This document shows positions 12,198-53,055 of a stretch of DNA of 64,000 nucleotides, piece by piece. Origin of the DNA: a virus (Duplodnaviria > Caudoviricetes). The translations under genes were made by a program, and so were the position numbers. The stretch is from IMG/VR virus record IMGVR_UViG_3300044655_001017. One strand, written 5' to 3'. Position 1 is the first letter of the stretch. Each line of letters opens with the position of its first letter. The notes beneath the pieces were generated by a model. It worked only from the letters and a program-made list of their open reading frames with translations. It made no database searches and had not been told where the DNA came from.

Positions 12198-12199
12198 CA

Positions 12200-16018: not shown

Positions 16019-16029
16019 TATATGACGAA

Positions 16030-16824
16030 ATGATAAATACTAGCATGTATTATGTATATATTTATAAAACCCCAATTAACATCACAGTAAGTTATATGAG
16101 TATTTTAGCAAATCAACCTTTTTATATTGGGAAGGGCCACGGTAGGCGATATAAAGATCATTTATCAGAAACTGCAGAAACTACGTGTAATCATTTAAAA
16201 GTTGCGGTAATTTCTAGATTAGTCGCGCAAAATCTAACTCCAGTTATAGAAATGTATCAAACTGAGTTAACAGATGCTGCAGCAAAGGCTCTTGAAATTG
16301 ATCTGATTAACCAGTACGGCCGATTAATTGATCATGCCGGCCCGTTAACAAATAAAACACTAGGCGGAGATGGGTGTACTGGATTTAAACATACTGAAGA
16401 AACCAAACAATTAATGAGTATTCAGAGAAAAGGAACCATTCCATATAATAAAGGTATCGCTCGTCCAGGAATTGGTGGACGTACATTAGGTACTAAATGG
16501 TCTGAATCTGAAAGAGAAACTCAACTGTTAGTTAGAAGCCAACCAGGTTATTATGAGTTTAACAAATGTCCTATAAGAGCAAAAAAAATAAGTGACTCCA
16601 AAAAAGGAAAACCTGGATCAGCAAAAGACAAACAATGGTTTAATAATGGAGTTATTGAGACCTATAAAGATATATGCCCTGACGGATTTGTTAAGGGAAG
16701 ACTTCCTAGATTACAAATATCAAAGAGAGGCATGTGTTGGTATAATAATGGAGTAATTAACAAACAATTTAAAGAAGGAACAGAACTTGATGGATTTACA
16801 CGCGGAAGAATTAATAAAAAATAA
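16030..16824 (+). mobile_element. Free-standing GIY-YIG homing endonuclease (probable start ATG 16045)
   Basis: YYVYIY...FYIGKG..RRYKDH, LTNKTLGGDG, NUMOD3-like HTEETKQLMS; own ATAAATA promoter at 16033. Confidence 0.88.
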
Positions 16825-17899
16825 GTTAGGATTAACGGTGCTAACTGACACCGGCTGGAGCAAGTTTGACGGAATCTTAGTTAAAGGTGTTAAAAAGATA
16901 CTTCATGTAACTACACAACGTCATTCACTTAAAAGCACTCCTGATCATAAATATTTTCTTAATGGGTTTAAACCGATAGAAGGTAGATTATTATTGCCTA
17001 AACAAAAAATTTTAGTTAATGGCAAACTTGATAATGTCGTGTCTGTTAAGTGGCTGTTAGATGAAGAACCAGTATACGATCTGTTTAATGTTGAACAGAA
17101 TCACAGGTATTATGCAAATAACGTTCTAATCAAAAATTGCGAATTTTTAGTATACGACGAAACTCTTATTAACAGTTTAAAATTAGTAGAGTTATACGGT
17201 AAAGAACCACTAATGAAAATGGGGCAAGTGCGATGGTATAAAAAACCAACTGCAGGTAATTTATATTTAATTGCGTTAGATCCTAGTTTAGGAACAGGTG
17301 GGGACTATTCGGCAATATCAGTATTTGAATTACCATCAATGGTGCAAGTTGCAGAATGGCATCATAACATTACTCCTATACAAGGACAGGTAAAGTTATT
17401 TAGAGATATATTATTATATATACAAGATGAAATTGGATCAGATCAGTATAATTCAATATATTGGTCAGTAGAAAATAATACAGTAGGTGAGAGCGCATTA
17501 GTAGTAATTGACAATTTAGGAGAAGAAACATTTCCGGGATTATTTGTAAGTGAACCGGGCAGAAAGGGGCATGTTCGTAAGTTTCGCAAAGGATTTAACA
17601 CAACTTTTAATAATAAAATAGCTGCATGTTCAAAATTAAAATATTTTGTTGAAGAAGATAAAATGGTTATTAATAGTAAACCATTAATAACTGAATTAAA
17701 ATCTTTTATTGCACATGGCATTAGTTTTAAAGGTAAACCGGGCCAGCATGATGATTTAGTAGCAGCATTATTACTAATAGTAAGAATGATTGATATACTA
17801 GCAGAATGGGATCCGTTAGTGTTTGAAAAAATGCGGATTGAAGATCGAATTGAGGACTGGGAAGCACCTCTACCAATATTTGTTTCCTCTAATATGTGA
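16790..17899 (+). CDS. terL: 116-aa C-intein fused to terminase large subunit C-terminal (nuclease) fragment
   Basis: TPDH (block B), VYDL (F), YYANNVLIKN|CEF (G, ends 17137); then ALDPSLGTGGDYS, VENN, HDDLV; AAGGA RBS upstream. Confidence 0.9.
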   Translation: MDLHAEELIKNKLGLTVLTDTGWSKFDGILVKGVKKILHVTTQRHSLKSTPDHKYFLNGFKPIEGRLLLPKQKILVNGKLDNVVSVKWLLDEEPVYDLFNVEQNHRYYANNVLIKNCEFLVYDETLINSLKLVELYGKEPLMKMGQVRWYKKPTAGNLYLIALDPSLGTGGDYSAISVFELPSMVQVAEWHHNITPIQGQVKLFRDILLYIQDEIGSDQYNSIYWSVENNTVGESALVVIDNLGEETFPGLFVSEPGRKGHVRKFRKGFNTTFNNKIAACSKLKYFVEEDKMVINSKPLITELKSFIAHGISFKGKPGQHDDLVAALLLIVRMIDILAEWDPLVFEKMRIEDRIEDWEAPLPIFVSSNM

Positions 17900-17910
17900 T
17901 AAATATAAAC

Positions 17911-20214
17911 ATGGACAATAATTTAGATAAAATCGCTTTAGACCTTTATGGTAAAATAGAAACACGTTTCTCAGATATTAAAATGGGTGACGAAAACGCA
18001 GAAGTATTAAGTAAAAAAGTTGACATCCCAAGAGCTCGATTTTTTGAGTTTGAATATACAGAAGACGGCGAACCACTTGGAACTATTACTATTACTTTAG
18101 ATAAAGATGACGGAGTTGTGTTGCAAGTTAGTGGAGATTTAGTAGATGATGATTCAAATACTACAAACCGCAGCGCATACAAATTTATAAGATCATTTAG
18201 AAAATTTGCTAAAAATCGCTTATTAAATTTTGATGTTCAAAACATTGGAAAGAGTAATTTAGACAAACGAGACTATCAGTTTCAAGCAAAACCCAAGGAA
18301 CAAACAATGATGGAAAGTAAAATGTTTGGTACTTCTAGAATAAGTTACCAAGACTTAGGTGAGGCTCGTTTAATAGTTAAACATACTCAACCTATTAATC
18401 CGGAGTTAGCCGCAGGACGCACTATGCATATTGAGTGTATATACATTGAAAATGCAGAAGGCGAAAGATTTAAATACCCTTATAAACATTTACCCGGCGC
18501 TCGTGCATTAGCAGAACATATTAAACACGGTGGAATTCCGTACGATGACATTGGTAAACACATTACTAAACTTAGTGAAGAATTAGCAAGTTTGCGTAAA
18601 TTTAAAGGCTACGTTAGTCGTCAGTCACAGATATCAGAAGCAATGGGAGATGTTACATCTCGTGTAATTGAACGCATTGAATCAGTTAAAAAAGAAATCA
18701 TTAGCTTACAACGTCCTGCATATTATCAACAATTTGCAGAATCATTTACTGCAAAAGAAGATCGTGCAATTCCAGAAACTATAATGAATGACTGGATTGA
18801 TCGATTGACAGTGCGCACATTTAATGAAGAAATGAAAACAGTATTTCCGTTCTTGTATAATATTATAGACGAAAGCGAATTACCAGTGTGTGAATTATCG
18901 TCAGATTACTTCTTAGATGAAAAAGCACCTAAAGGTTGGGAAGGTACTGTTAAAGCAATGAAGAAACACAAGGAAATAGATAATCCTTGGGCATTAGCAC
19001 ACTCAATGAAAAACAAAGGGTATAAAAGCCATAAGACAGAAACCTTTGATCCGGAGATTGCCTTTGAATCGTTTATTAATCGCATTATGCTTGAAGATAA
19101 AGATGAATTGTTTAGTCCAAATAAAGATGCACAAAAAGTTGCTATTGACAAATTAAATAAAATTTTAGAAAAAGAATTACGTGGCGGACCAGATGGTATT
19201 AATGCTATTGATAGCTTATCTGGGTTAATTGACGATACTGAATTTTTAGATTCATTAAAAGATATTGATCCTGATTTAGATGTACGTCCGTTAATTCAAC
19301 AATACGTAACACAAGTTGATCCGAGTATTGCCATCCAATTAAAATTTGGCGACGGCGAAGTAGGCGGACAAGATTTAGCACCTGCAGCTGATGGTGCAAC
19401 TGCACCTAGCAGCGCACCTGCACCAGGCGGCGAAGCTCCTCCAGACTTAGGTGGCGGAATGGGCGGCGGAATGGGCGGCGGAATGGGCGGCGGAATGCCT
19501 CCAGACTTAGGTGGTATGCCTCCGGAAGGTGAAGTTCCTCCAGAAGGTGAAGTTCCTCCAGAAGGCGCCCCTGCTCCGGAAGGTGAAGTTCCTCCAGCGC
19601 CAGGTACAGAACCTCCTGCACCTCCAGTAGCAGAAGGTATTAATCATAAAAAATCCAAAATTAAAGCTAAGTTTATTAAAGCAAAGGCTGCTGGCGCTAC
19701 ATTAGAAACAATGTTTGCAGAAGGTATGACTATTCGCGATGCACTTAGAGAAAGTGGATTAACTCCGTGCGAAGCCGGTTTTGGCGAATGTGAAATGGAG
19801 GACGACGATGGTAGTGCACCAGACGAAGAAAATATTTCCGGTAAAGAACAGATTTTAAATTCAATTGAAGGATTTTGGAATAAAGAAGAACGTAACTTTA
19901 CTATTGGCGGACAACAGGTTAAGAATAAGATTATTAAACGATTCAAAGACGGAGAATATAGTAATGCGTCAGAAGAAGATGTTAAGGAAATTTTACAAAA
20001 AGTTGATCAGCTAGATCCAAGCGAAGATGCTAGAGAACAAAATGATGTTTTACGATTAGCAGGAGTAAGTCATCAAAATTTAGATACTGATCAAATAGAC
20101 ATGGAAGGATTTGGTGGTAGACGTTTTGATAGTATTGACAAACAAAAAATGCGTAAAACAATGAGGAATAATCATGAAACAAATTTTAAAAATCGATTCA
20201 ATAAATTCCGTTAA
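17911..20214 (+). CDS. Large conserved hypothetical protein with Pro/Gly-rich linker
   Basis: ~767 aa; late promoter at 17899. Confidence 0.55.
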   Translation: MDNNLDKIALDLYGKIETRFSDIKMGDENAEVLSKKVDIPRARFFEFEYTEDGEPLGTITITLDKDDGVVLQVSGDLVDDDSNTTNRSAYKFIRSFRKFAKNRLLNFDVQNIGKSNLDKRDYQFQAKPKEQTMMESKMFGTSRISYQDLGEARLIVKHTQPINPELAAGRTMHIECIYIENAEGERFKYPYKHLPGARALAEHIKHGGIPYDDIGKHITKLSEELASLRKFKGYVSRQSQISEAMGDVTSRVIERIESVKKEIISLQRPAYYQQFAESFTAKEDRAIPETIMNDWIDRLTVRTFNEEMKTVFPFLYNIIDESELPVCELSSDYFLDEKAPKGWEGTVKAMKKHKEIDNPWALAHSMKNKGYKSHKTETFDPEIAFESFINRIMLEDKDELFSPNKDAQKVAIDKLNKILEKELRGGPDGINAIDSLSGLIDDTEFLDSLKDIDPDLDVRPLIQQYVTQVDPSIAIQLKFGDGEVGGQDLAPAADGATAPSSAPAPGGEAPPDLGGGMGGGMGGGMGGGMPPDLGGMPPEGEVPPEGEVPPEGAPAPEGEVPPAPGTEPPAPPVAEGINHKKSKIKAKFIKAKAAGATLETMFAEGMTIRDALRESGLTPCEAGFGECEMEDDDGSAPDEENISGKEQILNSIEGFWNKEERNFTIGGQQVKNKIIKRFKDGEYSNASEEDVKEILQKVDQLDPSEDAREQNDVLRLAGVSHQNLDTDQIDMEGFGGRRFDSIDKQKMRKTMRNNHETNFKNRFNKFR
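19441..19620 (+). repeat. Coding tandem repeats (GGGM x4; EGEVPP x3)
   Basis: ggcggaatg-based and gaaggtgaagttcctcca repeats. Confidence 0.85.
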
Positions 20215-39861: not shown

Positions 39862-40009
39862 GGCCCCAGGCCCTACATAATAAAATCCGGCCCCTACATG
39901 GTTACGATATCGTGAAATCCACTGTTTATTCACTGTGCTTATGGATTAGGGGCATAACAGTATATTCACCATTTTAACAAGTTTTCTAGACCATCCAAAC
40001 ACCGTAGAA

Positions 40010-40228
40010 CTATTCACTACGGTTGCGTATGGTAGACTTAACTTCACTTATGGTAGATTCCAGCCTTGAGATTTGACGCGCTTGACGTTCTACCGTTTCC
40101 ATTAGACGGTTGACTAGCGTATATAGATGGCTAGAGTCACTGTGCATAAACTTACTGCTACCATTTTCAAACTCTACTCGGCCCGGGACTATGCTTTTCG
40201 GGACCGGCTCTTGATTATATTGTTCCAT
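40010..40228 (-). CDS. Small coiled-coil hypothetical protein
   Basis: 72 aa with GGAG RBS. Confidence 0.55.
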   Translation of the reverse strand: MEQYNQEPVPKSIVPGRVEFENGSSKFMHSDSSHLYTLVNRLMETVERQARQISRLESTISEVKSTIRNRSE

Positions 40229-40732
40229 ACTAACTCCACTGTGTGTATACTGTATATATCACTGTGACGCCACTGTAGAGGTAGGGTGCGGGCCGAAAGG
40301 GTCCTAGGGGTCTAAAAAATTTCCCGCGCAAAAAATTAGAGAGAAGTACTTACAGATTCTCCCTGGTGATTTAGTACCTATGGGGTTAAATTTAGAGGAG
40401 TTTTTAGAGTTTTTAGAGTTTAGGGAAAAAAGGTTGCGTTGTTGTAAAAAAACAACAAATTGTTGTATTATATGTCCCCCCACCCCTCGGGGCATTGTAT
40501 TGCGTTACACTATTATAGCACACTACACACTACATTGCAAGCTTTTTTTACGCAAAAAACTAAAAAAATAAAAAAATAATTTAACATTTTTTTAAAAAAA
40601 CGCTTGCTATTTTTTTAAATTACTGTATAATATGCTGTAAGTTAAGTAGTTAAGCAGTTTACTTAACTAGCGCACTAAATGTGTGCATACACGTTTAGTG
40701 CTACATTATACGCACTAAAAAAGGGCATAACT

Positions 40733-41113
40733 ATGTTAGACAATATTACAGTACAAAGCATTGCAAGTAAAAGCAACAAAACCGTGCAATGTGTAGGGGT
40801 TAGCACGCACGAAAAAGCGACAATAGGCACTAAGATACGTTTTAGCGGTAAGCCCGATAGTAGTGCGCGTGTTAGCACGCTAATTGCAACAAAATTGCAC
40901 AGCGACATAATTATGTGCGATTTAAGTGCGCAGGTTAGCGAATTGCAAGGCGCGGTTATAGTGCGCGATACGTTAGCAGATACAGACTACTTGCAAGCGC
41001 ACCAATTAAGTGCAATAGATAGCTACATTGCTAAATACAGTACGCACGAAATTAGTGCAGCACGGGAAAACATTAGCAATAACAATATTAAAATTGTTAA
41101 AATACTAATGTAA
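40733..41113 (+). CDS. Early protein, K(I/V)RF...H(S/T)DI family, copy 1
   Basis: Own promoter and terminator; paralogue of 43310..43693 and 48826..49179. Confidence 0.7.
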   Translation: MLDNITVQSIASKSNKTVQCVGVSTHEKATIGTKIRFSGKPDSSARVSTLIATKLHSDIIMCDLSAQVSELQGAVIVRDTLADTDYLQAHQLSAIDSYIAKYSTHEISAARENISNNNIKIVKILM

Positions 41114-41125
41114 CACAGTAACACA

Positions 41126-41158
41126 GCAACTACACTGCAAAGTGTAGTTGCTTTTTTA
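41126..41158 (+). terminator. Rho-independent terminator
   Basis: agcaactacact-gcaa-agtgtagttgct-ttttt. Confidence 0.85.
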
Positions 41159-41327
41159 CTTGCTTTTTTAGTTTGTTTATGCTATAATAACGCATAGTAA
41201 AAAGTTAAAATAAAAAGCTATAGCGGGGCCGTCGGTGGCCAAGACAGACTGGATTTGAAAAGGCCGGAACCGAAACCACTATCCGATAGCTCTCCAAGTA
41301 TCTACCATAGCTCTCCACCTAGACCTC

Positions 41328-41366
41328 ACTGTATCCTTACTGTATCCTTACTGTATCCTTACTGTA
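41328..41366. repeat. 11-bp tandem repeat (ACTGTATCCTT x3.5)
   Basis: Directly visible; reads AAGGATACAGT on minus. Confidence 0.9.
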
Positions 41367-41407
41367 CCGGCAACAGGTGCTATATTAGTATAGCACCTTT
41401 CCCCACC

Positions 41408-41557
41408 TTAGTCAACTAAGTCTTTAAACCGTTTTATCTTACTAGTAAAGCGTGCCGCGTGTTCCTTACGTGTAAGGCTAAGCACGGTAACAAACGCTCC
41501 GCTTAATGCGTATGCGTTTCGTTTATATATGTAACCATAATAGTTGTTTGTTTGCAT
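41408..41557 (-). CDS. Small early protein (49 aa)
   Basis: ATG after promoter and ACAGCGTG leader. Confidence 0.55.
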   Translation of the reverse strand: MQTNNYYGYIYKRNAYALSGAFVTVLSLTRKEHAARFTSKIKRFKDLVD

Positions 41558-42153
41558 AGTATGTTGCACGCTGTAGTTGTTTAGTAAGTGCATATTATAG
41601 CACGCTACACAAAAAATGCAAGCATTATTTTTACAAACAATAACCACACACAACCACCTATCCATAACCCCAATTTTCAAATATCTCACAGCGGGGCCTT
41701 TATAAAAGTGGTCACTTATGGCAAATGGATACAAGCGGTAAGCACTAACGCAAATTTGCGTTTTAAGCGTTGTTTGTTGTGTACTGCTATAGTTGCATTG
41801 CTTAGTATATAAACGCGTATTGTGTACACGTTAACGCGCAAGTTTTAGCAATGTAAATTATAAATGCTAAGTGTATTTTACACGCGCACGACAAATATTA
41901 AAAGTTTACAGCGGGGTATTGATATACCGGTTGCTCATTATGCTATACTATAGTATAATATTGGTATATTGAAACGTTGGTAAGATGGTAAAGAGGTTGA
42001 GGGCAGAGATAAGGGAAAGCCCGGTCCATTGCATACTGGATTCCGGGCTTTGGGCATACTATGTAAGTATGTTGTATGGTTGGTGAACAAATGCTACTAC
42101 CCATCTGCCCACCTGAGGTCTTTAGTCTTTACAGCGGGGCCTTTCTATAGGTC

Positions 42154-42231
42154 CTACTTTGTTTTGCGTCTAATTACTCGACGGCATGCGATTGTACTTT
42201 TTTTGGTTGCGCGATCGGATCTTCTTGCCAT
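42154..42231 (-). CDS. 25-aa basic peptide MARRSDRATKKSTIACRRVIRRKTK
   Basis: Promoter at 42278-42305, GGAGA RBS; absent from ORF track. Confidence 0.45.
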   Translation of the reverse strand: MARRSDRATKKSTIACRRVIRRKTK

Positions 42232-42338
42232 GTTGTTCTCCAGTGTTGTTGTAAAAAAGTATTTAACGTTTTAACTATTATACTATAGTGTTAAAGTAAA
42301 TGCAAGCACTTTTTACAGTGCTTGCATTGTGTTATTGT

Positions 42339-42698
42339 TTAATTAACAGTGCTATTTTGCACTTGTTTAACATACTTATTAAATGTTTTTTTAGTAACAC
42401 ATTTTATGTAAGCGTTGTTAATTTGCATTTGCGTTAAATTAGCGTTATTTGCTAGCGTTACTGTATAGCTAACACTGTAATTGCTAGCAAAGTTAATGTT
42501 AGCAACAAAAGCACTGCTAACATAGCATAACACATAATTTTTAGCTGCTTTGTATATTGTACGCTTTGCGTGTTTTTGCTTTGTTGCTATTACTTTGTTA
42601 TTAGCTACATAAGCGTTAAGCACTTGTAACATAGCTTGTTGCGTTGCTTTGTTACTGTTTTTTTGCGCTTGTTTGCGCGTTGCTGTAATTGTTTGCAT
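42339..42698 (-). CDS. Early protein (119 aa) with no Asp, Glu, Gly, Pro or Trp
   Basis: Own promoter (42765-42792) and terminator (42299-42328). Confidence 0.6.
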   Translation of the reverse strand: MQTITATRKQAQKNSNKATQQAMLQVLNAYVANNKVIATKQKHAKRTIYKAAKNYVLCYVSSAFVANINFASNYSVSYTVTLANNANLTQMQINNAYIKCVTKKTFNKYVKQVQNSTVN

Positions 42699-42805
42699 AA
42701 TATACACACTATAGTTAAATTGTTAAAAAGCGTATGTTAAACGTAATTGCTTAACACAGTGCATATTATACACGTTTGTGTACAATATGCAAGCGTTATT
42801 TTTAA

Positions 42806-42982
42806 TTATTTTAGCAGTGCATCAAACGCTCCGCAAAACCCTGCAAACGCTATTGTTATCGGAGTAGCAACCAGCATCCACGTTACCGCGTCCACCATGA
42901 AGTTCATAACTCCATATTGCGTGTTACGCGCGTTTGCTTGTTTGTTTAAAAAATTTTGTACTGTTTGTTGTTTAGTTTGCAT
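42806..42982 (-). CDS. Small early membrane protein (58 aa)
   Basis: Promoter 43019-43046; hydrophobic C-half. Confidence 0.55.
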   Translation of the reverse strand: MQTKQQTVQNFLNKQANARNTQYGVMNFMVDAVTWMLVATPITIAFAGFCGAFDALLK

Positions 42983-43309
42983 AGTAGTAAGCACGCTGTT
43001 GTTGTTTAGTAAGTGCATAGTATAGCACGTTTAAAAATAATTGCAAGCTTTATTTGTATATTGTTTTCCGGTTGCCCAACACCTGCGAAGCCGGGGGGGG
43101 GGGGTGGTTGGTCGGTCTGTCCGATTGCCTAGCGGTCTAGTCCGGCTCTGTGGTGTGCATAGTATAGCACGTTTGTGTTGTAATTGCAAGCACTTTTTTA
43201 TTTAATTTTAGCATAGTAGTTTGCACGCTGTAGTTGTTTAAGTAGTGCATAGTATAGCATAGTTAAAACAAAAACGCAAGCACTTTTTACAGTGCTTGCG
43301 CTTGCTATG

Positions 43310-43693
43310 TTATTTAAGCACTGCTATTATTTGCACGTTATTAGTGCTTAATTCGTCTTGTGCATTGCTTTGCTCTTGTGCATTAAACTTATTTACAAAA
43401 GCTTGCATTGCACTATTTTGTTGCTCGTTATGATGTTCGCCTTGTTGTAGTGCAACAAGTGTTGCAGCTAATTCCGTGCATTGCACGTTTAAAGTGTAAA
43501 ATACTATATCGCTATGCTCTTTTGTTGCTAAAAGCGTGCTTACGCGTGCTTGCGCTGTTTTATCTGTAAAGCGTACTTTATAACCTATTGTCGCTTTAAC
43601 GTGCAAGCTTGCGCCTACTGCTATTACTTTTTTAGTGCTTGCGTTAATGCTGTTAACTACAATGTTTTGCACGCTAATGTTGCTGTTTGTCAT
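43310..43693 (-). CDS. Early protein, KVRF...HSDI family, copy 2
   Basis: GGAGCG RBS, tandem promoters, terminator 43274-43300. Confidence 0.7.
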   Translation of the reverse strand: MTNSNISVQNIVVNSINASTKKVIAVGASLHVKATIGYKVRFTDKTAQARVSTLLATKEHSDIVFYTLNVQCTELAATLVALQQGEHHNEQQNSAMQAFVNKFNAQEQSNAQDELSTNNVQIIAVLK

Positions 43694-43975
43694 TTTCTCG
43701 CTCCGAGTGTTGCACTAAAATAGTGCTATTAGTTAATACTGCTGTTTGTTACTACAAGTGCTATTATACGCTGTTTATTTGCACTTGTAAAGCGTTTTTT
43801 TAAAATACTTTTAAAACGCTTTTTTGTTGCACTGCTTTACTACAAAAACTATTATACGCTTTTTTGCGTAAATGTAAAGCGTTTTTTTATTTTATTTTTT
43901 GCTTGCATTTACTGTTTTATTGTGTTATAATAGCGCAAGCGTAAAGCCCGCGCTACCGGTTCTCTCTATACCGCC

Positions 43976-44173
43976 TTACCTCATATCGCTGTCCGCCGCT
44001 TTATCACAGCGTGTCGCATATCCGGTGAGCACCGACTCATTCAACTTATCGAGGAGTTGAACTTCCATTGCCCGGTGTTGTTGGCACTCAGCTAGTGTTG
44101 GATATATGAATGTGTTATCAATTTCCTGCGCCCCAATAAACATCATCACTTTCAATATATATAATGCTTCCAT
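43976..44173 (-). CDS. Small early protein (65 aa)
   Basis: Promoter 44221-44249, GGAGCA RBS. Confidence 0.6.
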   Translation of the reverse strand: MEALYILKVMMFIGAQEIDNTFIYPTLAECQQHRAMEVQLLDKLNESVLTGYATRCDKAADSDMR

Positions 44174-44264
44174 TGTTCTTGCTCCGCTTGTTACGTTAGC
44201 TTTATTGCTAACTTGCATATAGTATAGCAAACTATTAAACTATATGCAAGTGTTTTGTTTTCGA

Positions 44265-44438
44265 CTAGTCCACTAATGCACTTGCTCTAAGATCCACAAA
44301 GTTCGCATACTTCATTGTGTCTTTTGTTTCTCTGCGCTCACGTAGTAGTGCAGTCCGGGCACGCTCGACTTCTCTGCGGGTCTGTACACCAATTAGTCTT
44401 GCGCTCAACACTGCCGTATATTCTTGTACCGGTTTCAT
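44265..44438 (-). CDS. Small basic early protein (57 aa, MKPVQEYTAV...)
   Basis: AGGAG RBS; absent from ORF track. Confidence 0.55.
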   Translation of the reverse strand: MKPVQEYTAVLSARLIGVQTRREVERARTALLRERRETKDTMKYANFVDLRASALVD

Positions 44439-44501
44439 TCTATGCTCCTAATGGTTTCAAAAGTTCGTTGTTGTCAGCACGTCCATGTGCCCTGTGTTAG
44501 T

Positions 44502-44801
44502 TTATAGTCCGTACATTTCAGCTACGCTGTTTGCCACACGTCCGTCGTTACCCCATTGTACTTTAATGCAACCCGGATGTTCATTGCCCAGTGCTGCCAA
44601 CTTAGCAAGTGCCAATTCCCAGTTGTTTAGTTTGTCTACTGGTTTCGGAGCGTCAGCACTTGTAAAGTAGTTAGCTGGTGGTACCTTACGTTCCGGAACA
44701 TTGCTTTTACTTGTTTTCACTTTGCCGCCTGCTTCCAAAAACGCTTGTACTGCATTGTTTGTTGCTGTGTTTTTTGCTTGTTTGTTTGTATTAGTAAACA
44801 T
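44502..44801 (-). CDS. Early protein with SutA-like RNAP-binding motif
   Basis: NAVQAFLEAGGKVKTS. Confidence 0.55.
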   Translation of the reverse strand: MFTNTNKQAKNTATNNAVQAFLEAGGKVKTSKSNVPERKVPPANYFTSADAPKPVDKLNNWELALAKLAALGNEHPGCIKVQWGNDGRVANSVAEMYGL

Positions 44802-44976
44802 AATTTGCACGCTGTAGTAGTGTTAACAGTTAAACGTTATTGCTTAACTTGCATATAGTATAGCAAAGCAAAACTGGTATGTAAAGCGTTTTTTTTAAGT
44901 GTTGTTTCCATTGTGCCCACGCGTGTACACATAAACAGCGGGGCCTTTTCGGCACTTCCCTGTGCCGTTGTATCCG

Positions 44977-45318
44977 TTATAGTCCCGATCCGCATAAGCA
45001 GTTATACACAAACTCAGCATCCTGTAATGCCACATTGTTTATGTAATCCACTAAGTCCTTGTGCTCCTCTACTTCCTCTACAAACGCTTGTACCGCAGCA
45101 TCATCGTTCCACAAGTCATCATGTGCTTCGTAATGTCTGTTGTATATTGTTACCATTTGCGCAATTATATGCACCGGATGTTCAGTAGTGCCCCACTCCT
45201 CCGCATAGTTCTCGTCCGCCAACATAAACACTGTACTTGTTACGCTGGGAGTTAGCGGGTACTTGCTTGTGTTTGCGTTTGCTGTGTTAATTTTTGTTGC
45301 TGTAGTAGTATTTTGCAT
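44977..45318 (-). CDS. Early acidic protein, tandem duplicate A
   Basis: YNRHYEAHDDLWNDDAA shared with 45487..45834. Confidence 0.7.
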   Translation of the reverse strand: MQNTTTATKINTANANTSKYPLTPSVTSTVFMLADENYAEEWGTTEHPVHIIAQMVTIYNRHYEAHDDLWNDDAAVQAFVEEVEEHKDLVDYINNVALQDAEFVYNCLCGSGL

Positions 45319-45486
45319 AGTTAGCACGCTGTAGTTATAAGTTAGCTTAATTGCTAACTTGTACATATTATAGCACGTTTAAACATTTTGTAAAGCGTTT
45401 TTTTAAGTTTTGTTTTCGCTGTTACCATACGCGTGTACACATAGCAGCGGGGCCTTTCCGAGCACGTCCATGTGCTCTGTGTTATC

Positions 45487-45834
45487 TTACAAGCCCGAGC
45501 AACATAAGCAATCATACACAAACACTGTGTTCTGTAATGCCACATTGTTTATGTAATCCACTAACTTCGCATTGTCCTCAACTTCCTCTATACACGCTTG
45601 CATCGCAGCATCATCGTTCCACAAGTCATCATGTGCTTCGTAATGTCTGTTGTATATCTCTGCTATCTTTAATACTATGTGTGTCGGATGTGTCGTTGTG
45701 CTCCACTCCTCCGCAAAGCTCGCATCCGCCAACAGTGCCAGCACACTTGTTTTGCTCGGATAGTACCCGGGCAATTTGCTTGTGTTTACGTTTTGTGTGT
45801 TAATTTTTGTTGCTGTAGTAGTATTAGTTTGCAT
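45487..45834 (-). CDS. Early acidic protein, tandem duplicate B
   Basis: Paralogue of 44977..45318 including promoter and 3' elements. Confidence 0.7.
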   Translation of the reverse strand: MQTNTTTATKINTQNVNTSKLPGYYPSKTSVLALLADASFAEEWSTTTHPTHIVLKIAEIYNRHYEAHDDLWNDDAAMQACIEEVEDNAKLVDYINNVALQNTVFVYDCLCCSGL

Positions 45835-46013
45835 AATAAGCACGCTGTAGTAGTGTTAACAGTTAAGCGTTATTGCTTAACTTGTACATAGTATAACACG
45901 TTTAAACATTTTGTAAAGCGGTATTTTAGAGTATTGTTTCCGACATAACCGGGGGGGGGGTGGTCGGTCGGTCTGTCAGATTGCTTGGCACTTCCCTGTG
46001 CTCGATATATCAG

Positions 46014-46385
46014 TTATGCCATTATGCTCGCTACTTCAGTGTATCGTTGTTTCAATCTTTCGATCATATGGAGTAAGTCGACATTAAAGACTAAGTCATA
46101 TACATCGCTTTCCGTTGTACTCACTATACCAATTGCACTCGTGTAATGGAGTTGTTCGACTATAGTCGTTACAGTCGTTACATCTATTTTCAATTGTTTC
46201 GATACTTCGGCTAGTAACACTTTCGAAACTGTCTTGCGATCTCTGTCCGCTAGTCTATGAAACCCTTTTGCCAACATCCTTGCAACATCGGTATTTTGGC
46301 GTATCGTTGCACCAATGCTATCGTTATGCTCGTGTAACTCGTTTAAAAACTTAATATGGTTTCTCAATACTGTTTGGATAATCAT
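46014..46385 (-). CDS. Hypothetical early protein
   Basis: 123 aa, GGAGCG RBS. Confidence 0.65.
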   Translation of the reverse strand: MIIQTVLRNHIKFLNELHEHNDSIGATIRQNTDVARMLAKGFHRLADRDRKTVSKVLLAEVSKQLKIDVTTVTTIVEQLHYTSAIGIVSTTESDVYDLVFNVDLLHMIERLKQRYTEVASIMA

Positions 46386-46450
46386 TATGCGCTCCAGTTA
46401 ATCAGTTAAGTACGCGCATACTCGATATATGCGCGTGTAAACAGCGGGGT

Positions 46451-46717
46451 CTATTGGCGTGCTTTGATTGCCGATTGCACCTGCTTGTTCAACAGCCCAA
46501 TTGCCGCTAGCTCCTCTTTAGCTTGTTCCCATGTGTATCGTTGTTTCTCTACTACAACTACGCGGGGAGTATGGACTTGTGATACTGTAGTGCGTCCTCT
46601 GCGTCCTGTTTTAGTTGTTTTAATTGCTCCTCCGGTTGCTAAGAACATTGCCACGCGAGCCGCTAACTCCGCTGCTTGTTGTTGTTTAACTTCGTTGTTC
46701 ATAATACCTGTTGCCAT
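46451..46717 (-). CDS. Early protein with SutA-like RNAP-binding motif
   Basis: LAARVAMFLATGGAIKTT; GGAGCG RBS. Confidence 0.55.
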   Translation of the reverse strand: MATGIMNNEVKQQQAAELAARVAMFLATGGAIKTTKTGRRGRTTVSQVHTPRVVVVEKQRYTWEQAKEELAAIGLLNKQVQSAIKARQ

Positions 46718-46878
46718 TATACACGCTCCGCTTTATCGTTAATGTCAGTTTCTTCAGTTTGCTCACAATCCCAACATGGTTCAAGCTCATCTGTTTCCAT
46801 GTTGTATAGTACAGTCAAGTCCCCACACGTAGTGCAATACGCGCGTAGTGGGTAAGTGTTTTTGTATTGTACTTGCAT
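46717..46878 (-). CDS. Small Zn-ribbon-like protein (53 aa)
   Basis: CTTC...CWDC; promoter 46912-46940. Confidence 0.55.
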   Translation of the reverse strand: MQVQYKNTYPLRAYCTTCGDLTVLYNMETDELEPCWDCEQTEETDINDKAERV

Positions 46879-46983
46879 AATTTTTACACGCTGTTTTGTT
46901 AATGTGTGCATATTATAGCATTGTAACACGCGCATTGCAAGTAGTTTGTTAACCGCAATGCGCGTGTACATAAGCAGCGGGGC

Positions 46984-47400
46984 CTATACGGTAGTTACGA
47001 GCAACAAGTTGTCCAACACATCCGCTTTAGCTCTGTATACCATGTTGCCGTGTCTCGTATGCTCAATTACAATCCCATTTGCCTCACACCACAAGTCCAA
47101 ACGCGCTGCTCTTAAGCTCACTTTATCTTTAAACTGTGGTTTGTTGACTTTAACGGCAATAAACTTTTTTCTGTAGTTCATAAACACGTTGCTCTGTATA
47201 TACACATCCTCAATGTGTGCTAACAACGCTTCCCCTGCGCTCAATTGCACTAAGCTATACAAACTCTCATTCTCAGCGTCTCTGCGTTTAATATCCTCTA
47301 AGCACACGTAAGCTGGAAGTTTGACGTCATCCGATGTGTGTGATACAGCGTGTACAATAGCAGTAGCTGTGTTTTTGAGTAATTTAGTAGTTGTTGACAT
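46984..47400 (-). CDS. Hypothetical early protein
   Basis: 138 aa, GGAGCG RBS, own promoter. Confidence 0.65.
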   Translation of the reverse strand: MSTTTKLLKNTATAIVHAVSHTSDDVKLPAYVCLEDIKRRDAENESLYSLVQLSAGEALLAHIEDVYIQSNVFMNYRKKFIAVKVNKPQFKDKVSLRAARLDLWCEANGIVIEHTRHGNMVYRAKADVLDNLLLVTTV

Positions 47401-47505
47401 ATGATACGCTCCGAAAGTTATGTTAAGTTTTAAACAGTTAGCTGTTTTGCTAACTTGTACATATTATAGCAAACTAAGTACAAGTTAGCAAGTGATATTT
47501 TTGAA

Positions 47506-47694
47506 CTATAGTTCCACTAGCTCGCCGCGTGCTACTGCGTCCGCAGCTTCTAGTTCCTCTTTATAGAACTTGTTGATAGCATTGTTTGTTTCGAGATACG
47601 ATTTGGAGTTTTTGGCTTGTGTACGCAATTGGCGTGTGAGCATGTTAATGTATTTGATACGCGCGGCGCTTGTGATGTAAAGTATTTTTTGCAT
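47506..47694 (-). CDS. Small early protein, NSKxYLE family
   Basis: NSKSYLETNNAINKFY; paralogous to 48161..48418. Confidence 0.6.
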   Translation of the reverse strand: MQKILYITSAARIKYINMLTRQLRTQAKNSKSYLETNNAINKFYKEELEAADAVARGELVEL

Positions 47695-47793
47695 AATATA
47701 CACGCTATAGTTATAAGTTAGCTTAATTGCTAACTTGTACATATTATAGCAAACTATATACAAGTTAGCAAATGGTATTTTAGAACTTTGTTT

Positions 47794-48066
47794 TCACCCT
47801 TCCGGATAGCAACCAGCTTCCATCATTGCATAGATAACTCGTTCTCTTGGTAGAGTATCTTGATATACCAGCGAGTTGATTAACTGATCGTAGTCGCCGC
47901 TTTTCATATAACTGATTAAACACTTTTGGTTGTACTTGCCATCTTCAATTGCCAAGTCCATAAAGTCCCACTCATCTGCTTCGGCATACTCTTTTGCTTG
48001 AGCATTGAAGTCGGTAACACATTGTTTGAGGGTAGCGATTACAACAGGATTAGTAGTGTTTGGCAT
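47794..48066 (-). CDS. Hypothetical early protein
   Basis: 90 aa, own promoter. Confidence 0.65.
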   Translation of the reverse strand: MPNTTNPVVIATLKQCVTDFNAQAKEYAEADEWDFMDLAIEDGKYNQKCLISYMKSGDYDQLINSLVYQDTLPRERVIYAMMEAGCYPEG

Positions 48067-48160
48067 AGTAGTTTACACGCTGTAGTAGTTAAGTAAGTGT
48101 ATATTATAAAGCATTGCAGGCGGTTTGTAAAGAACTTTGTTAACCGCCTGCCGGTATATA

Positions 48161-48418
48161 CTACGCGGCTTCTAATTGCGCCAATGCAAACGCTTCATCA
48201 AGTGCCATCTCCGCAATGTATATACGGTTTAACTGAGTGTTGGCTTCCAGGTAAGCTTTGGAGTTAACACGCGCGGCACTGATTTGAGAGCGGAGCGAAC
48301 GGATTTGGCGGGCGGTCGCTTCCGATACAAGGCGCTTTGGCTTTTGGGCAGCTGCCTCCGCTTCGGCTTGCTTGTGTGCTTTAAGTTTGGCTGCTAACGA
48401 TACATTGTATTTTGACAT
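48161..48418 (-). CDS. Small early protein, NSKxYLE family
   Basis: NSKAYLEANTQLNRIY. Confidence 0.6.
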   Translation of the reverse strand: MSKYNVSLAAKLKAHKQAEAEAAAQKPKRLVSEATARQIRSLRSQISAARVNSKAYLEANTQLNRIYIAEMALDEAFALAQLEAA

Positions 48419-48587
48419 AGTAGTTTACACGCTTGTTGTTAAGTAAGTGCATATTATACTATAGTATGCACTGGTTGTCAAGAACTTTATATTCACCCGC
48501 GCTCGCACACGCGTAAACAGCGGGGTCTATCCGGGGGGGGGGAGGTCGGTCGGATTGGCCGGTTATTCGCTGCCCCCAATCTATCGG

Positions 48588-48761
48588 TTACTCATCGTCC
48601 CATATGTCGTCCCAGTCTATTGGTGTGTAGGCATCATCTATATCGTCTCCCCAGTCTTCGTCCATTCCTGCAAAGAACTCTTTTCGCTCTTGCATTAAGG
48701 TCGCACCGCGTGTTTGAAGTATTGCTAACTGCTCTCTTAAGTTTTGCTCTATAGCTTCCAT
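48588..48761 (-). CDS. 57-aa protein with highly acidic Asp/Trp tail
   Basis: ...DEDWGDDIDDAYTPIDWDDIWDDE; GGAGC RBS; absent from ORF track. Confidence 0.6.
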   Translation of the reverse strand: MEAIEQNLREQLAILQTRGATLMQERKEFFAGMDEDWGDDIDDAYTPIDWDDIWDDE

Positions 48762-48825
48762 AACAGCTCCGACTAATTAGTTAAGTCGCCCCGCCATACA
48801 CACATATGCAGCGGGGCCTATTACT

Positions 48826-49179
48826 CTATGCTACTGCTAACTCAGCTTCCAGTGCATCTGCTGCTGCCGCGTAGTCCACTTCCTCAACTACTACACTTTG
48901 TGGAGCAACCACTGTGTACTTGCTAAAGAAGTCATCGAATGCTTGTTGTGCATCTAAGTCCTCTAACTCTGTGTAGTTCTTAATTGCCATTGCTGCATCA
49001 TACTTGGTCATTGCACCGTCTAGCGCAAACAATCTAATGTCTGTGTGTCCATTGCGTTGTAACACTTTCACACGATCCGCTTTGTTAGCAAATCGTACTT
49101 TGTACACACCATTTAAGTTGCTGATGCCAGCGAAAGTAAATGTTTTTTCAACTGCAGTAACTGTGATTAAGTTTGACAT
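48826..49179 (-). CDS. Early protein, KVRF...HTDI family, copy 3
   Basis: KVRFANKADRVKVLQRNGHTDIRL; GGAGCG RBS. Confidence 0.7.
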   Translation of the reverse strand: MSNLITVTAVEKTFTFAGISNLNGVYKVRFANKADRVKVLQRNGHTDIRLFALDGAMTKYDAAMAIKNYTELEDLDAQQAFDDFFSKYTVVAPQSVVVEEVDYAAAADALEAELAVA

Positions 49180-49273
49180 ATTGTACGCTCCAAAAAATAG
49201 AAAAGTTAAGTTGTTTTACTGCTAGTTAGCTAACGCGCTTGTTAGCTAACTTGTTACATATTATACAGCATTT

Positions 49274-49507
49274 TTAAAACATTGCAAGCATTTTGTTTTC
49301 TCTTGCTTCAAGTATTGCATCAATACGCGCCTCAACACTCTCTGCGCTCTCAAGTGTTGTCCAGCCGCCGTTGTTGTGGCGTCCATCTTGTACTGAAGTT
49401 TCCATAATTCCTGTGTTTCTATTTTTATACTCCGACACTGTGATAGTAGTGTTAAAGTAGATAGTAACGATGTTGTTGCTTGTTGTAGTAATTTTTAATT
49501 TATACAT
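49274..49507 (-). CDS. Hypothetical early protein (77 aa)
   Basis: Own promoter, GGAGCG RBS; 3' end carries next -35 box. Confidence 0.6.
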   Translation of the reverse strand: MYKLKITTTSNNIVTIYFNTTITVSEYKNRNTGIMETSVQDGRHNNGGWTTLESAESVEARIDAILEARENKMLAMF

Positions 49508-49577
49508 AATACGCGCTCCGCATTGTTGTTTAACTTGTACATAGTATAGCAAACTTATTTTGGTTTGTAAAGAAGTT

Positions 49578-49667
49578 TTAAATCACTAGCTCATACCAGT
49601 TCAATACAGCGATTGCGCTCAATAATACGATAGTAGTGAATACTGCGAATGTGTGTATAAACGACAT
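49578..49667 (-). CDS. 29-aa hydrophobic peptide
   Basis: TTGACA promoter and AGGAGC RBS; single TM-like stretch. Confidence 0.45.
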   Translation of the reverse strand: MSFIHTFAVFTTIVLLSAIAVLNWYELVI

Positions 49668-49737
49668 TTTGTTTGCTCCTCATATATATAGTACACGCAT
49701 AGTATAGCAAACTACATACAGGTTGTCAACTGGTTTG

Positions 49738-50304
49738 TTACTCGGTGTATGCCGCCATTACCAATCCCACATAGTTCTGAGTCTCCGGATATGGTGGAAC
49801 CTTATTCTTATGCCGCATCACCGCATGCTCGCCCGCATTGTAACCGGCTACTGCTAGTTTGGTATCTTTGAATGTATCGAGCAAGAACCTTAGGAACCGA
49901 ACTCCACCTTCAATGTTCTGTCTTTCATCCATCCGATCACTCACTCCAAATCGCTCTGCCGTTGCCGGCATCAGCTGCATCAATCCAGCCGCACCTTTCT
50001 TACTTACAGCCGATTTGCGATATGTACTTTCCGTTTTAATGACTGCATGTACCAACTTCTCATCCACTCCATACTTCTTTGCAGCGATATGAACATAGTG
50101 ATTGACTTCCCATCGGGTTAATGGTTTGGTCTCCGGTTTCGCTACTATAGTAGTATGAACAACTGGTTTGGCTGCAGTATTGATCTCAACCGGATGATCT
50201 GTTAACCAAACTCGCCCATCCGCTCCCGTATATCTATATACATCCGCATTCACCGGCATTACTACTATAGTAGCGAGAATGGCAGCGCGGATCATTTGGC
50301 GCAC
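49738..50304 (-). CDS. Lytic transglycosylase (SLT) with signal peptide and DUF4124-like N-domain
   Basis: AVIKTES catalytic Glu, GAAGLMQLMP, AGYNAGE, PPYPETQNYV; DVYRYTGADGRVWLTD. Confidence 0.92.
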   Translation of the reverse strand: MRQMIRAAILATIVVMPVNADVYRYTGADGRVWLTDHPVEINTAAKPVVHTTIVAKPETKPLTRWEVNHYVHIAAKKYGVDEKLVHAVIKTESTYRKSAVSKKGAAGLMQLMPATAERFGVSDRMDERQNIEGGVRFLRFLLDTFKDTKLAVAGYNAGEHAVMRHKNKVPPYPETQNYVGLVMAAYTE

Positions 50305-50588
50305 TCTGCTGCGAACTTAACCATTGCTGCATACTCTGGATTGGCTACAGCGGTGACTACATGAGTAAGTAAATGAGCAATCATTGTAATCCCACCGATC
50401 CATGCTACGATCATTACACATGCATAGGTAAACGCATCCGATCCATTGAACTCATCTTTTAATAACTTAAACAGATAGTATGATCCAGCTAATACTCCAG
50501 ATATTACTACTATAGCGGCAATGTCTGGAATGGTGTCTATAATAGCTTGCTTTGCCAATAACTCTTGTGGTACATTGCATAACTTCAT
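50292..50588 (-). CDS. Two-TM membrane protein
   Basis: 98 aa, own promoter, GGAGCG RBS. Confidence 0.6.
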   Translation of the reverse strand: MKLCNVPQELLAKQAIIDTIPDIAAIVVISGVLAGSYYLFKLLKDEFNGSDAFTYACVMIVAWIGGITMIAHLLTHVVTAVANPEYAAMVKFAAECAK

Positions 50589-50989
50589 AACGCGCTCCGC
50601 AGTTGTTGTTTAACTTGTACATATTATAGCATACACAGCGGGGTCTGTAAAGAACTTTGTTACTCGTATACGCCCACTTGTATGTGCGCGTGTAGCGTGT
50701 TATATTATAAGCGCATAGCATACTATAGTATAAGTATGCTCACGCACTATAGCGCATTTATACGCGATATACGCTATGATACACTATAGTATAATAATAA
50801 GCGCATATACACATATGAGTAACTATGCACAGCGGGGCCTTTTATAGGTCCAGGACTCGATAATAACTCGTCATCTTCGGTTTTTGGCCCGCGTCGTTAG
50901 CGGTCTGCAACACCATGATTTTGCCGTTTTTCACGTTTATAGACCGACCTAGTACCAGAGTACAGGGTCCGGTTAAAAAGAATAAGAAA

Positions 50990-51104
50990 AAGCTCACTTT
51001 AGGGAGCGAATCTAAAGTGAGCTTATAGAGTTACTATAGTATAGGGAGCGAATCTATACTATAGTATATAGAGTATAGTTGGGAGCGAATCAACTATACT
51101 CTAT
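50990..51104. ncRNA. Three tandem hairpins with identical 11-nt loop (candidate regulatory RNA element)
   Basis: Perfect 12-13 bp stems of different sequence around GGGAGCGAATC at 51002, 51044, 51081. Confidence 0.6.
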
Positions 51105-51121
51105 TCATATGCGCGTTATTA

Positions 51122-52000
51122 TTATCTATGTGGGCGCATACAAGTTACAGAAGCTACTGCTTCCCAGTTAGTTGGCATTGCTTTACGCAAATCTGCTACT
51201 TTAAGAACCATACGCAAACTCAATTCACGCATTTTCTTTCTGTGTGTATCGATGTAGTTGAGGATCTCTTCAGCTTCATCTTCTTGGAATTCATACTTGT
51301 CTAGCATACCGTCGCTTACGATTTGCTTAATACGCAACATCTTTTCGCGTTCTGTGTCTATAGTAAGATCTAAGTAGTGGCAACGCGACTCTAATGCTTC
51401 TAAATGATCTTGCAATTTCTTGCTACGAACATGATCAAACTTAACATTTGTAATGAATATACAGCCGCCTTCAAAGTCAAAACTATTTGGAATACCTGCG
51501 TCCTTTAGTATGCGTGACTCTGTGTGCCAACTGATAGTACGCTTACGCCCAGTATCCAATGCTGCTTTGAGCAAGTTGAGCGCAATATCATCAAACAATA
51601 CACTATCGCAGTCGTCAAACACTACGATACACTTCTTGTCCTTATAGTCCCACAGCATTTGATATAAACATAATGCACTGATGTTACCTTTTGCTATAGT
51701 GTACTTCTTTAAGGTTTCATCTTGTGCTACATTGGCGAACACATCATAACGCGATAACACTGTTTCTACACCGTGTGATTTGCCTACTCCAGGTGGTCCA
51801 CTTACGATCATAGCGCGAACATCACCTTTCTTTACTGCACGAGTCATATCATCTAGTATGGCAAACCGTGTGCGCAACCGTTCTACAATCTCTTCGTCCG
51901 TTTCGTGTGATACATGTTCAGCCGGTCTTTGCGCTATAGTACGGTTGGTCTTGATTGTGTCTACGGTGATCATTTGTGGTCTTGCTACTGTTTGTTGCAT
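51122..52000 (-). CDS. AAA+ ATPase
   Basis: SGPPGVGKS, VFDDCD, IFITN, ALESRC; TTGACA promoter at 52033-52061. Confidence 0.85.
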   Translation of the reverse strand: MQQTVARPQMITVDTIKTNRTIAQRPAEHVSHETDEEIVERLRTRFAILDDMTRAVKKGDVRAMIVSGPPGVGKSHGVETVLSRYDVFANVAQDETLKKYTIAKGNISALCLYQMLWDYKDKKCIVVFDDCDSVLFDDIALNLLKAALDTGRKRTISWHTESRILKDAGIPNSFDFEGGCIFITNVKFDHVRSKKLQDHLEALESRCHYLDLTIDTEREKMLRIKQIVSDGMLDKYEFQEDEAEEILNYIDTHRKKMRELSLRMVLKVADLRKAMPTNWEAVASVTCMRPHR

Positions 52001-52065
52001 ACTTGCTCCGCATTGTGTGTTAGTAAGTGTTTATTATACTATAGTATAGTATGACTGTCAACTGG

Positions 52066-52251
52066 TTATCTAATCATTAGCGATATACATACACCAGTTA
52101 TCAATGGCACTAGATATATAGGTTCATGTGTTTCAATGTAGCCAGCTGCTCCTACACTGACTAATACAGTGACTAATCCAATCCAAAATACTGCTAATAT
52201 TGCTCCAATTACTACTATAAAAAAAGCTAATGAGAATATCGAACCTATCAT
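52066..52251 (-). CDS. Small membrane protein (61 aa)
   Basis: Hydrophobic; own promoter and GGAGCG RBS. Confidence 0.55.
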   Translation of the reverse strand: MIGSIFSLAFFIVVIGAILAVFWIGLVTVLVSVGAAGYIETHEPIYLVPLITGVCISLMIR

Positions 52252-52500
52252 TGTTGCGCTCCTACGTTGTTTAACTGTTATGCACATTATAACACACTGC
52301 TTTGAACATTGCAAGCACTTTTTTGGCACAATTTTACCACTGTAATACAACTGTAATGATATAGTAGGAATGGGTGGTTGGGCGGCATAGCTACAATAAA
52401 TACCCCATTGTTTTCCACAAAACCCCTCATATCCCCTGTAACCACCATAGGCCTCCTCTATTGTTTACCAAATAGTGCCACGTGTGCCGCAGGCCTAGCT

Positions 52501-52735
52501 TTCATCTCTATACTATAGTGTTTACTATAGTCAGGGTTCTCGTATACGCTACTATAGAGAATCTCTATAATTCTTATACTATAGCGTGTATCATTAGTGT
52601 TATCACTATAGTCTATATTACTGTGTGTATAGCGTGGATATGTGTTACTGTTTGTTATTATACTATAGTTGTTTATGATATGTAAAGGATTATTATTGGG
52701 TTTATTATCACTATAGTCTATACTACTATAGTATG
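52501..52735. repeat. AT-rich non-coding region with 8 ACTATAG repeats
   Basis: Copies at 52512, 52524, 52551, 52578, 52605, 52662, 52710, 52725. Confidence 0.8.
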
Positions 52736-52791
52736 CAATGGATAAGTTGCTTTCTTTTTGTTTTGCTACAAATATGTTGCTTTTTTATGGA

Positions 52792-53055
52792 TTATACATA
52801 ACGTCCGGGACTTCTAGTTGGAAAAGGATAATCTCTCACCGGAACAGCTGTGTATGTCAAATCAATCAAGTGAATAAGTTTAGCAGATACATTATCAGAT
52901 CTCCATGGATCTAGATTCTCAAACTTACCACTATATATGATTTCAAACATAGTAGGGAATCGCCAGTCGTATTTGTCTTTGTGTGTGCAAGTAATAATGA
53001 ATAAGAACGCATCGTCTTGTGTCGTTTGGTATAAGTGGGGAGCAAGTTCAATCAT
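52792..53055 (-). CDS. Mini Lcl/DUF1566-like protein 23
   Basis: TCTHKDKYDWRFPT...PVRD. Confidence 0.7.
   Translation of the reverse strand: MIELAPHLYQTTQDDAFLFIITCTHKDKYDWRFPTMFEIIYSGKFENLDPWRSDNVSAKLIHLIDLTYTAVPVRDYPFPTRSPGRYV

Follow-up and report, generated by a model that had tools for sequence, protein, structure and literature searches.

Four copies of one small RNA hairpin stand behind early genes in a 64,000-nt stretch of viral DNA (IMG/VR record IMGVR_UViG_3300044655_001017; "the window" refers to this whole stretch), each of them a short distance past a stop codon and each displaying the sequence ANGGAN in a six-base loop. The hairpin recurs in related phages, and its sequence fits the binding site of CsrA, a master post-transcriptional regulator in Gammaproteobacteria. 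Judging from this fit, we tentatively suggest that the hairpins are putative docking sites for the CsrA of the host, through which early genes of the phage may be regulated; we consider this role plausible without calling it probable. The window comes from an uncultured jumbo myophage and contains UvsX/SSB-like genes as well as genes for a helicase and for a tail sheath of 1126 aa. A near search of the GenBank phage collection matched no close relative; distant and protein searches gave PA5oct-, Atu_ph07- and Rak2-like jumbo phages as the nearest, at about 40% amino-acid identity. The minus strand between about 40000 and 64000 forms an early region of small open reading frames (ORFs), many with a sigma-70-type promoter of their own, and the hairpins lie within it.

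A conserved hairpin behind early-gene stop codons

The four copies in the window are as follows.

45988-46001, minus strand: hairpin A, GCAC-AGGGAA-GUGC, 12 nt past the stop of gene A.
45462-45475, minus strand: hairpin B1, GCAC-AUGGAC-GUGC, 11 nt past the stop of gene B1; 6-bp stem counting 45460-45477; -9.7 kcal/mol, z -3.4.
44952-44965, minus strand: hairpin B2, GCAC-AGGGAA-GUGC, 11 nt past the stop of gene B2; 6-bp stem counting 44950-44967; -10.6 kcal/mol, z -4.9.
44477-44490, minus strand: hairpin C, GCAC-AUGGAC-GUGC, 11 nt past the stop of gene C; the fifth pair is G-U.

The original prediction had reported four minus-strand hairpins at these sites, 11-12 nt past stop codons, and that description is confirmed: the sequence GCAC-N6-GTGC has only four exact matches in the 64 kb, all of them the hairpin sites, where 0.59 are expected and one of 100 shuffled sequences reaches four. 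The same four sites are the only ones on either strand of the window with an RsmE-type 10-mer of the form (A/U)CANGGANG(U/A), for which block shuffles give about 2.9, and the only ones with an A.GGA. hexaloop on a 4-bp stem, for which block shuffles give about 2.1. The number of hairpins is, on its own, no more than chance would provide, and the copies are not independent of one another, because B1 and B2 are a tandem duplicate. What does go beyond chance is the identical stem, the restriction to a single strand, the clustering, the constant distance from the stop and the conservation in relatives. All four stops are TAA, closing ORFs with 106-133 open codons, and the hairpins follow each other at intervals of about 475-525 nt, one per protein-coding cistron and all within 1.5 kb. 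Each is present, with its six-base loop open, in the minimum-free-energy fold of its own intergenic RNA; the stems have 4, 5, 6 and 6 pairs, and the isolated hairpins range from -4.8 to -10.6 kcal/mol. No U tract follows any of the window hairpins, and a terminator scan of the minus strand found none at the hairpin sites. An Rfam search of positions 40000-53000 returned nothing credible, with no family of the CsrB/RsmZ type among its results.

Related phage DNA was gathered from IMG/VR and metagenomes using the proteins of this gene cluster as queries, and conservation in related phages, with which the original prediction had proposed to check its reading, was found, with 31 hairpin copies across 11 phage sources. 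All 31 are found 9-14 nt past a stop codon that closes an ORF with 83 or more open codons; the genes in front of them come from at least five unrelated families, and GGA occupies the single-stranded hairpin loop in all four window copies and in all 31 family copies. The loops are ACGGAC (10 copies), AUGGAC (9), AGGGAA (5), AAGGAU (2), ACGGAU (2), AAGGAA (1), AAGGAC (1) and AGGGAC (1), such that A1, G3, G4 and A5 never vary, C, A or U stands at position 6, and any of the four bases at position 2, even when only the orthologous site behind gene B is considered. Of the stems, 28 are GCAC/GUGC, two ACAC/GUGU and one GCGC/GCGC, the departures being compensatory; an optional fifth pair is G-C, A-U, G-U or missing, many relatives have stems of exactly four pairs, and two copies lie inside 10-bp terminator stems. 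Genomes carry between one and five copies, mostly three or four. The orthologue of gene A is followed by the same hairpin as in the window in relatives L007, L174, L176 and L201, and by one with the loop AAGGAU in L177 and L199, and a hairpin stands upstream of gene D in all nine aligned sources. Because the loop is better conserved than the stem, we infer a reader that recognises the RNA loop, which speaks against both a plain structural stem and a DNA palindrome. Across relatives, selection holds the loop A and the GGA bases, and the N positions drift.

Elsewhere the element was not found: the pattern GYRC-ANGGAN-GYRC has no occurrence in the remainder of the same phage, as far as it was covered (G005), or in four more distant relatives, and a covariance model of the hairpin, run over 445 kb of related phage DNA, recovered only its training members, with scores falling from 26 to 14 bits. 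A further candidate, CACU-ACGGAA-AGUG in L178, lies within the coding sequence of gene A and was discarded as a chance match; in L178 gene B is followed by a different structure and a poly-C run. The post-stop site also varies in kind. In L199 (2896-2952) gene A is followed by two tandem copies of a 43-nt unit that includes the hairpin GCAC-AAGGAU-GUGC. In L006 (9698-9727) gene A is followed by an intrinsic terminator, GCGC-AGUGAU-GCGC within an 8-bp stem and then seven U, and in L194 (3348-3380) and L197 (3428-3460) ACAC-ACGGAU-GUGU forms part of a 10-bp stem, again followed by seven U. A G+C-rich stem with a U tract occurs in these three variants only and not in the window. The presence of terminators at the post-stop site in relatives suggests that GGA hairpins and terminators are interchangeable or related there.

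Fit to CsrA sites, spacing to the next gene and candidate hosts

Binding sites of the CsrA type are a textbook RNA element. The consensus obtained by SELEX (the systematic evolution of ligands through exponential enrichment) is RUACARGGAUGU, in which ACA and GGA do not vary and GU hardly does; most of the selected ligands show the GGA in a six-base loop that AC and GU close by pairing, and most of their stems have no more than four contiguous pairs (PMC7652899). A single CsrA dimer can bridge sites 10-63 nt apart, and in the glgC leader a hairpin tethers CsrA such that it can cover the Shine-Dalgarno sequence (PMC7652899). All four window hairpins match every sequence feature of the CsrA/RsmE consensus, so that the fit claimed in the original prediction holds at the level of sequence: they share with the known sites a GGA in a six-base loop, ACA before it and GU after it, and AC/GU closure; their stems of 4-6 pairs compare with four or fewer in most SELEX ligands. 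Across the family, AC-ANGGAN-GU is found in the consensus arrangement in 30 of 31 copies, and the remaining copy reads GC-AAGGAC-GC. The phage element differs from CsrA/RsmE sites and the glgC leader in standing 9-14 nt behind the preceding stop rather than in a 5' leader behind a promoter, in belonging to a lytic jumbo phage and in conserving two extra G-C pairs.

The genes and signals among which the hairpins lie are as follows.

46014-46385, minus strand: gene A, 123 aa, no known family.
45487-45834, minus strand: gene B1, 115 aa, no known family, paralogue of B2.
44977-45318, minus strand: gene B2, 113 aa, tandem paralogue of B1.
44502-44801, minus strand: gene C, 99 aa, no known family.
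44265-44438, minus strand: gene D, 57 aa, arginine-rich, predicted to form one long helix; ribosome-binding site (RBS) GGAG at 44445-44448 (AGGAGC).
45890-45917, minus strand: early sigma-70-type promoter of cassette B1, TTTACA, 16 nt, TATACT.
45367-45394, minus strand: early promoter of cassette B2, TTTACA, 16 nt, TATAAT.
44857-44885, minus strand: early promoter of cassette C, TTTACA, 17 nt, TATACT.
45939-45980, minus strand: poly-C module after hairpin A, a stem presenting a C-rich loop with a run of ten C at its end.

In 17 of the 31 family copies, the hairpin is followed 10-45 nt downstream, and mostly 24-28 nt downstream, by a GGAG RBS, which places a second GGA within the 10-63 nt that a CsrA dimer bridges. 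By analogy, this spacing is the classic geometry of glgC-type repression by CsrA, and the picture across the family speaks for regulation of the following cistron rather than for a pure sponge. In the window, bridging distance is found only for hairpin C: 33 nt separate its loop GGA from the GGA that lies downstream in the RBS of gene D (start at 44438). Hairpins A, B1 and B2 are instead followed by a poly-C or GGCCCCGCUG module and then by the TTTACA...TATA(A/C)T promoter of the next cassette, 66-70 nt after the hairpin. The statement in the original prediction that the hairpins sit after stop codons and not over RBSs thus stands in its first part, for all four, and needs amending in its second, given the position of hairpin C; its remark that the leaders largely lack GGA is true of the leaders of the three promoters of cassettes B1, B2 and C.

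We propose that the phage uses one conserved RNA hairpin, tucked behind the stop codon as near as a terminating ribosome would permit, as a docking site for a dimer of host CsrA. In the operon form, seen in the relatives and at 44477-44490 in the window, CsrA held by the hairpin would reach across to the GGA of the next RBS, some 30 nt downstream, and repress the gene behind it, as happens at glgC in Escherichia coli. Translation of some early genes, always including D, would in this way be tied to free CsrA and hence to host physiology. Hairpins A, B1 and B2, from which the next gene is separated by a promoter cassette, might hold CsrA at mRNA 3' ends, titrating it or stabilising the message, or might be inherited ends of cassettes.

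Neither the two records that span about 265 kb of this phage, nor close relatives, nor a 96%-complete distant relative yielded a csrA gene, from which it follows that a CsrA reader would be that of the host. The likely hosts are gammaproteobacterial methanotrophs. Among published phages with pmoC, the gene is of gammaproteobacterial type in every genome above 300 kb and in every one where it is fragmented, and the predicted hosts are Methylobacter or Methyloparacoccus (PMC7674155); on the contigs that we examined, pmoC itself is absent. CsrA is encoded in all 41 genomes of the Methylomonas (M. fluvii) family and in 30 of the 31 from a second family of gammaproteobacterial methanotrophs, a cultured relative has csrA in its annotation (PMC10466089), and the CsrA of Methylomonas fluvii is identical to that of E. 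coli at 47 of 51 positions over the RNA-binding core. The original prediction implied a host with CsrA, which either candidate gammaproteobacterial family would probably provide. A comparison of window positions 1-20000 with 346 Methylomonas-family genomes gave no spacer-like matches. The strongest and most often repeated matches to genomes of this family come from a low-complexity Gly-Met repeat and were rejected as host evidence; the repeat (GGGM, four copies; 19450-19497, plus strand) lies in the gene for a 772-aa virion protein and has short matches to many Methylomonas-family genomes. Searches of five genomes of the family with the Rfam CsrB/RsmZ models, for a Csr small RNA of the host, gave sub-threshold matches only, and the two RsmZ-model matches that we inspected contain just two GGA each, so that no such RNA was obtained for comparison.

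Several observations weigh against CsrA as the reader. Three of the four window copies (A, B1 and B2) have no GGA RBS within bridging range, and position 6 of the loop is mostly C, where SELEX prefers U. The motif is limited to one small clade, with 1-5 sites per genome; relatives with an early ATPase about 63% identical do not have it, and one of these is a 356-kb genome that is 96% complete. Conservation of the GCAC/GUGC stem and of a UAACAC flank goes further than CsrA would need for binding, and might come from a reader of higher specificity or from gene conversion among cassettes. The identity of the host, too, is something that we infer, and a host from the alphaproteobacterial Methylocystis family, in which none of 31 genomes encodes CsrA, would leave the hairpins without this reader. 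Even so, CsrA appears to be the best single explanation, on the strength of sequence fit and context; within it, regulation of phage genes is the tentative reading given above, and pure titration of CsrA is a good deal less probable.

Alternative explanations and neighbouring elements

A phage-encoded RNA-binding protein might read the hairpin in place of CsrA. The best candidate for this unlikely alternative is protein D, which would act as the lambda N peptide does on boxB, and which could autoregulate its own translation or alter transcription so as to pass terminators at cassette ends. In every D-carrying source examined, a hairpin is 24-45 nt upstream of the RBS of D, and in L006 this is the sole copy; D and the hairpins co-occur, with more distant relatives having neither, although this association is confounded by descent, as the whole A-B-C-D block is clade-specific. 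D has an invariant, arginine-rich basic core and is predicted to form a single long helix, and the conservation of stem and flank beyond the requirement of CsrA is also in its favour. The order of stop codon, short hairpin and C-rich tract recalls cro-nutR-tR1 of lambda, where a short hairpin with a purine-rich loop likewise follows an early-gene stop and precedes a C-rich tract, and where a small arginine-rich protein is likewise encoded alongside. Unlike boxB, however, the phage hairpin has a loop of six bases rather than a GNRA-like loop of five, with no G at the first position; no boxA-like element was recognised, and searches gave no sign that D is homologous to N. D has no match in Pfam, PHROG or PDB, its likeness to N is one of composition only, and if D were the reader, the exact fit of the hairpins to an independently defined CsrA consensus would be a coincidence.

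The hairpin could alternatively be a purely structural stem-loop at the end of a cassette, of the PeSL (promoter early stem-loop) type, acting in 3' protection, as a processing mark or as a recombination joint, with the GGA retained by the copying of cassettes; we regard this as improbable, to about the same degree as a role for D. In three of the four window copies the order is stop, stem-loop, early promoter, as in T4-type PeSL cassettes (PMC4122927), in which small early ORFs have a sigma-70-type promoter of their own after a conserved stem-loop and the cassettes duplicate and shuffle (PMC2839356, PMC4122927). Duplication is evident here in B1 and B2 and in the hairpin-bearing 43-nt unit of L199, and the post-stop site holds terminators in L006, L194 and L197. 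PeSL stem-loops are, however, of the terminator type (GN-loop-CN or A3-4G3-loop-C3T3-4) with no defined loop sequence (PMC4122927), whereas in the window element the loop is the conserved part and a T tract is missing. The window hairpins are weak and without a U tract, and would make poor terminators or exonuclease blocks. Copying alone fails to explain why variation inside the loop is confined to positions 2 and 6 across 11 sources and several unrelated upstream genes, and the loop is retained even where the stem has changed to ACAC/GUGU or GCGC/GCGC.

Two further explanations seem less likely. The original prediction had offered a sponge as one of its two readings; here the 3' hairpins of abundant early mRNAs would titrate host CsrA off host targets and reprogramme metabolism. 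The sites resemble high-affinity CsrA sites and apparently lie behind strong early promoters, three of the window copies are without a nearby partner site, and a GGA-rich, poorly structured stretch, with a related one in L201, lies behind another early promoter (about 41225-41382). The phage hairpins have GGA loops on short stems in common with the CsrB and RsmZ sponges, which differ in being non-coding and in carrying many closely spaced sites. Sponge RNAs of the CsrB type carry many sites, whereas each phage cistron has a single one, with intervals of about 500 nt and a total of 1-5 in a genome, and the copies in relatives mostly lie 24-28 nt before the next GGAG, which points to control of phage genes; this part of the original prediction found no support, and we judge a sponge distinctly unlikely. 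More doubtful still, to the point of being very improbable, is a DNA palindrome in which GCAC-N6-GTGC would be the operator of a dimeric DNA-binding protein of phage or host. The half-sites GCAC/GTGC are present in 28 of 31 copies and stem changes preserve the palindrome, but the asymmetric A.GGA. spacer is better conserved than the half-sites and persists between ACAC and GTGT, one copy has its stem extended by G-U, which in DNA is a mismatch, and the constant distance from the stop codon argues for action at the level of mRNA. We also rejected read-through of the stop codon, since the median length of the open stretch past the stop is 14 codons in frame and 12 out of frame, and the stretch differs between orthologues, and mimicry of a Shine-Dalgarno sequence, which is unlikely given that most loops (ACGGAC, AUGGAC) offer partners to no more than three bases of the 16S rRNA 3' end.

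Genes A, B, C and D, an 88-aa gene and their neighbours match no Pfam or PHROG family, and matches of early-cluster proteins to SutA-RBD and helix-turn-helix models were sub-threshold and too weak to serve as evidence. The 88-aa early protein (46451-46717, minus strand), which has a KTGRRGR motif and belongs to no known family, is 93% and 85% identical in relatives, against 54-73% for its neighbours. Gene D is found in lake metagenomes in about 30 sequence clusters, always beside a GGA hairpin.

Other RNA elements accompany the hairpins. Poly-C modules occur at 45939-45980, near 48520-48560 and near 43080-43125 (all on the minus strand), as well as at about 9850-9895 in L007; they share the tract GACCGACC with 10-12 C at its end, which folds as a hairpin loop, and differ in their closing stems (UCUGACAGACCG/CGGUUAUGUCGGA in the window, GGGCAACC/GGGUUGCCC in L007). 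These modules could be Rho loading sites or some other element that displays a loop. The sequence GGCCCCGCUG is specific to the minus strand and follows stops or GGA hairpins at about 45444-45453, 44936-44945, 46441-46450, 46974-46983 and 48808-48820, among others; it often acts as the 5' half of a stem-loop whose 3' half varies and which has no U tract. The GGA-rich stretch at 41225-41382 (minus strand), behind a promoter at 41415-41387, contains three tandem ACAGUAAGGAUAC units and further GGAG and GGA sequences, and is predicted to be less structured than shuffled sequences (z +1.5); the related stretch in L201 (about 6541-6680) is behind the same type of promoter. The RNA from 41225-41382 is a candidate multi-GGA early RNA that bears on the CsrA theme.

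Precedent and significance

Use of host CsrA by a mobile element has a precedent in the ColE7 operon, where CsrA represses the lysis gene cel (PMC2896534). The likeness lies in a mobile element employing host CsrA on a gene inside its own operon, and the difference in its being a plasmid with a single regulated gene, for which a repeated family of post-stop hairpins is not known to have been described. The searchable literature yielded plasmid and host examples and no lytic phage with a conserved family of CsrA-type sites in its mRNAs; what appears to be a conserved set of such sites, each following a stop codon within early operons, would for a lytic jumbo phage without csrA of its own have no described counterpart there. 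A short, defined motif of this kind would be easy to assay, even in E. coli, whose CsrA is near-identical in its RNA-binding core.

A bolder version, which we think rather unlikely, is that this phage works the Csr system in both directions: lacking csrA, it would tie translation of its early genes to free CsrA, and its hairpins, together with the RNA from 41225-41382, would also strip CsrA off host mRNAs at the start of infection. If that were true, it would amount to the seizure by a phage of a global post-transcriptional regulator, which is so far undescribed. If CsrA does read the hairpins, infection of methane-oxidising bacteria by these large lake phages would be coupled to the carbon and growth state of the host.

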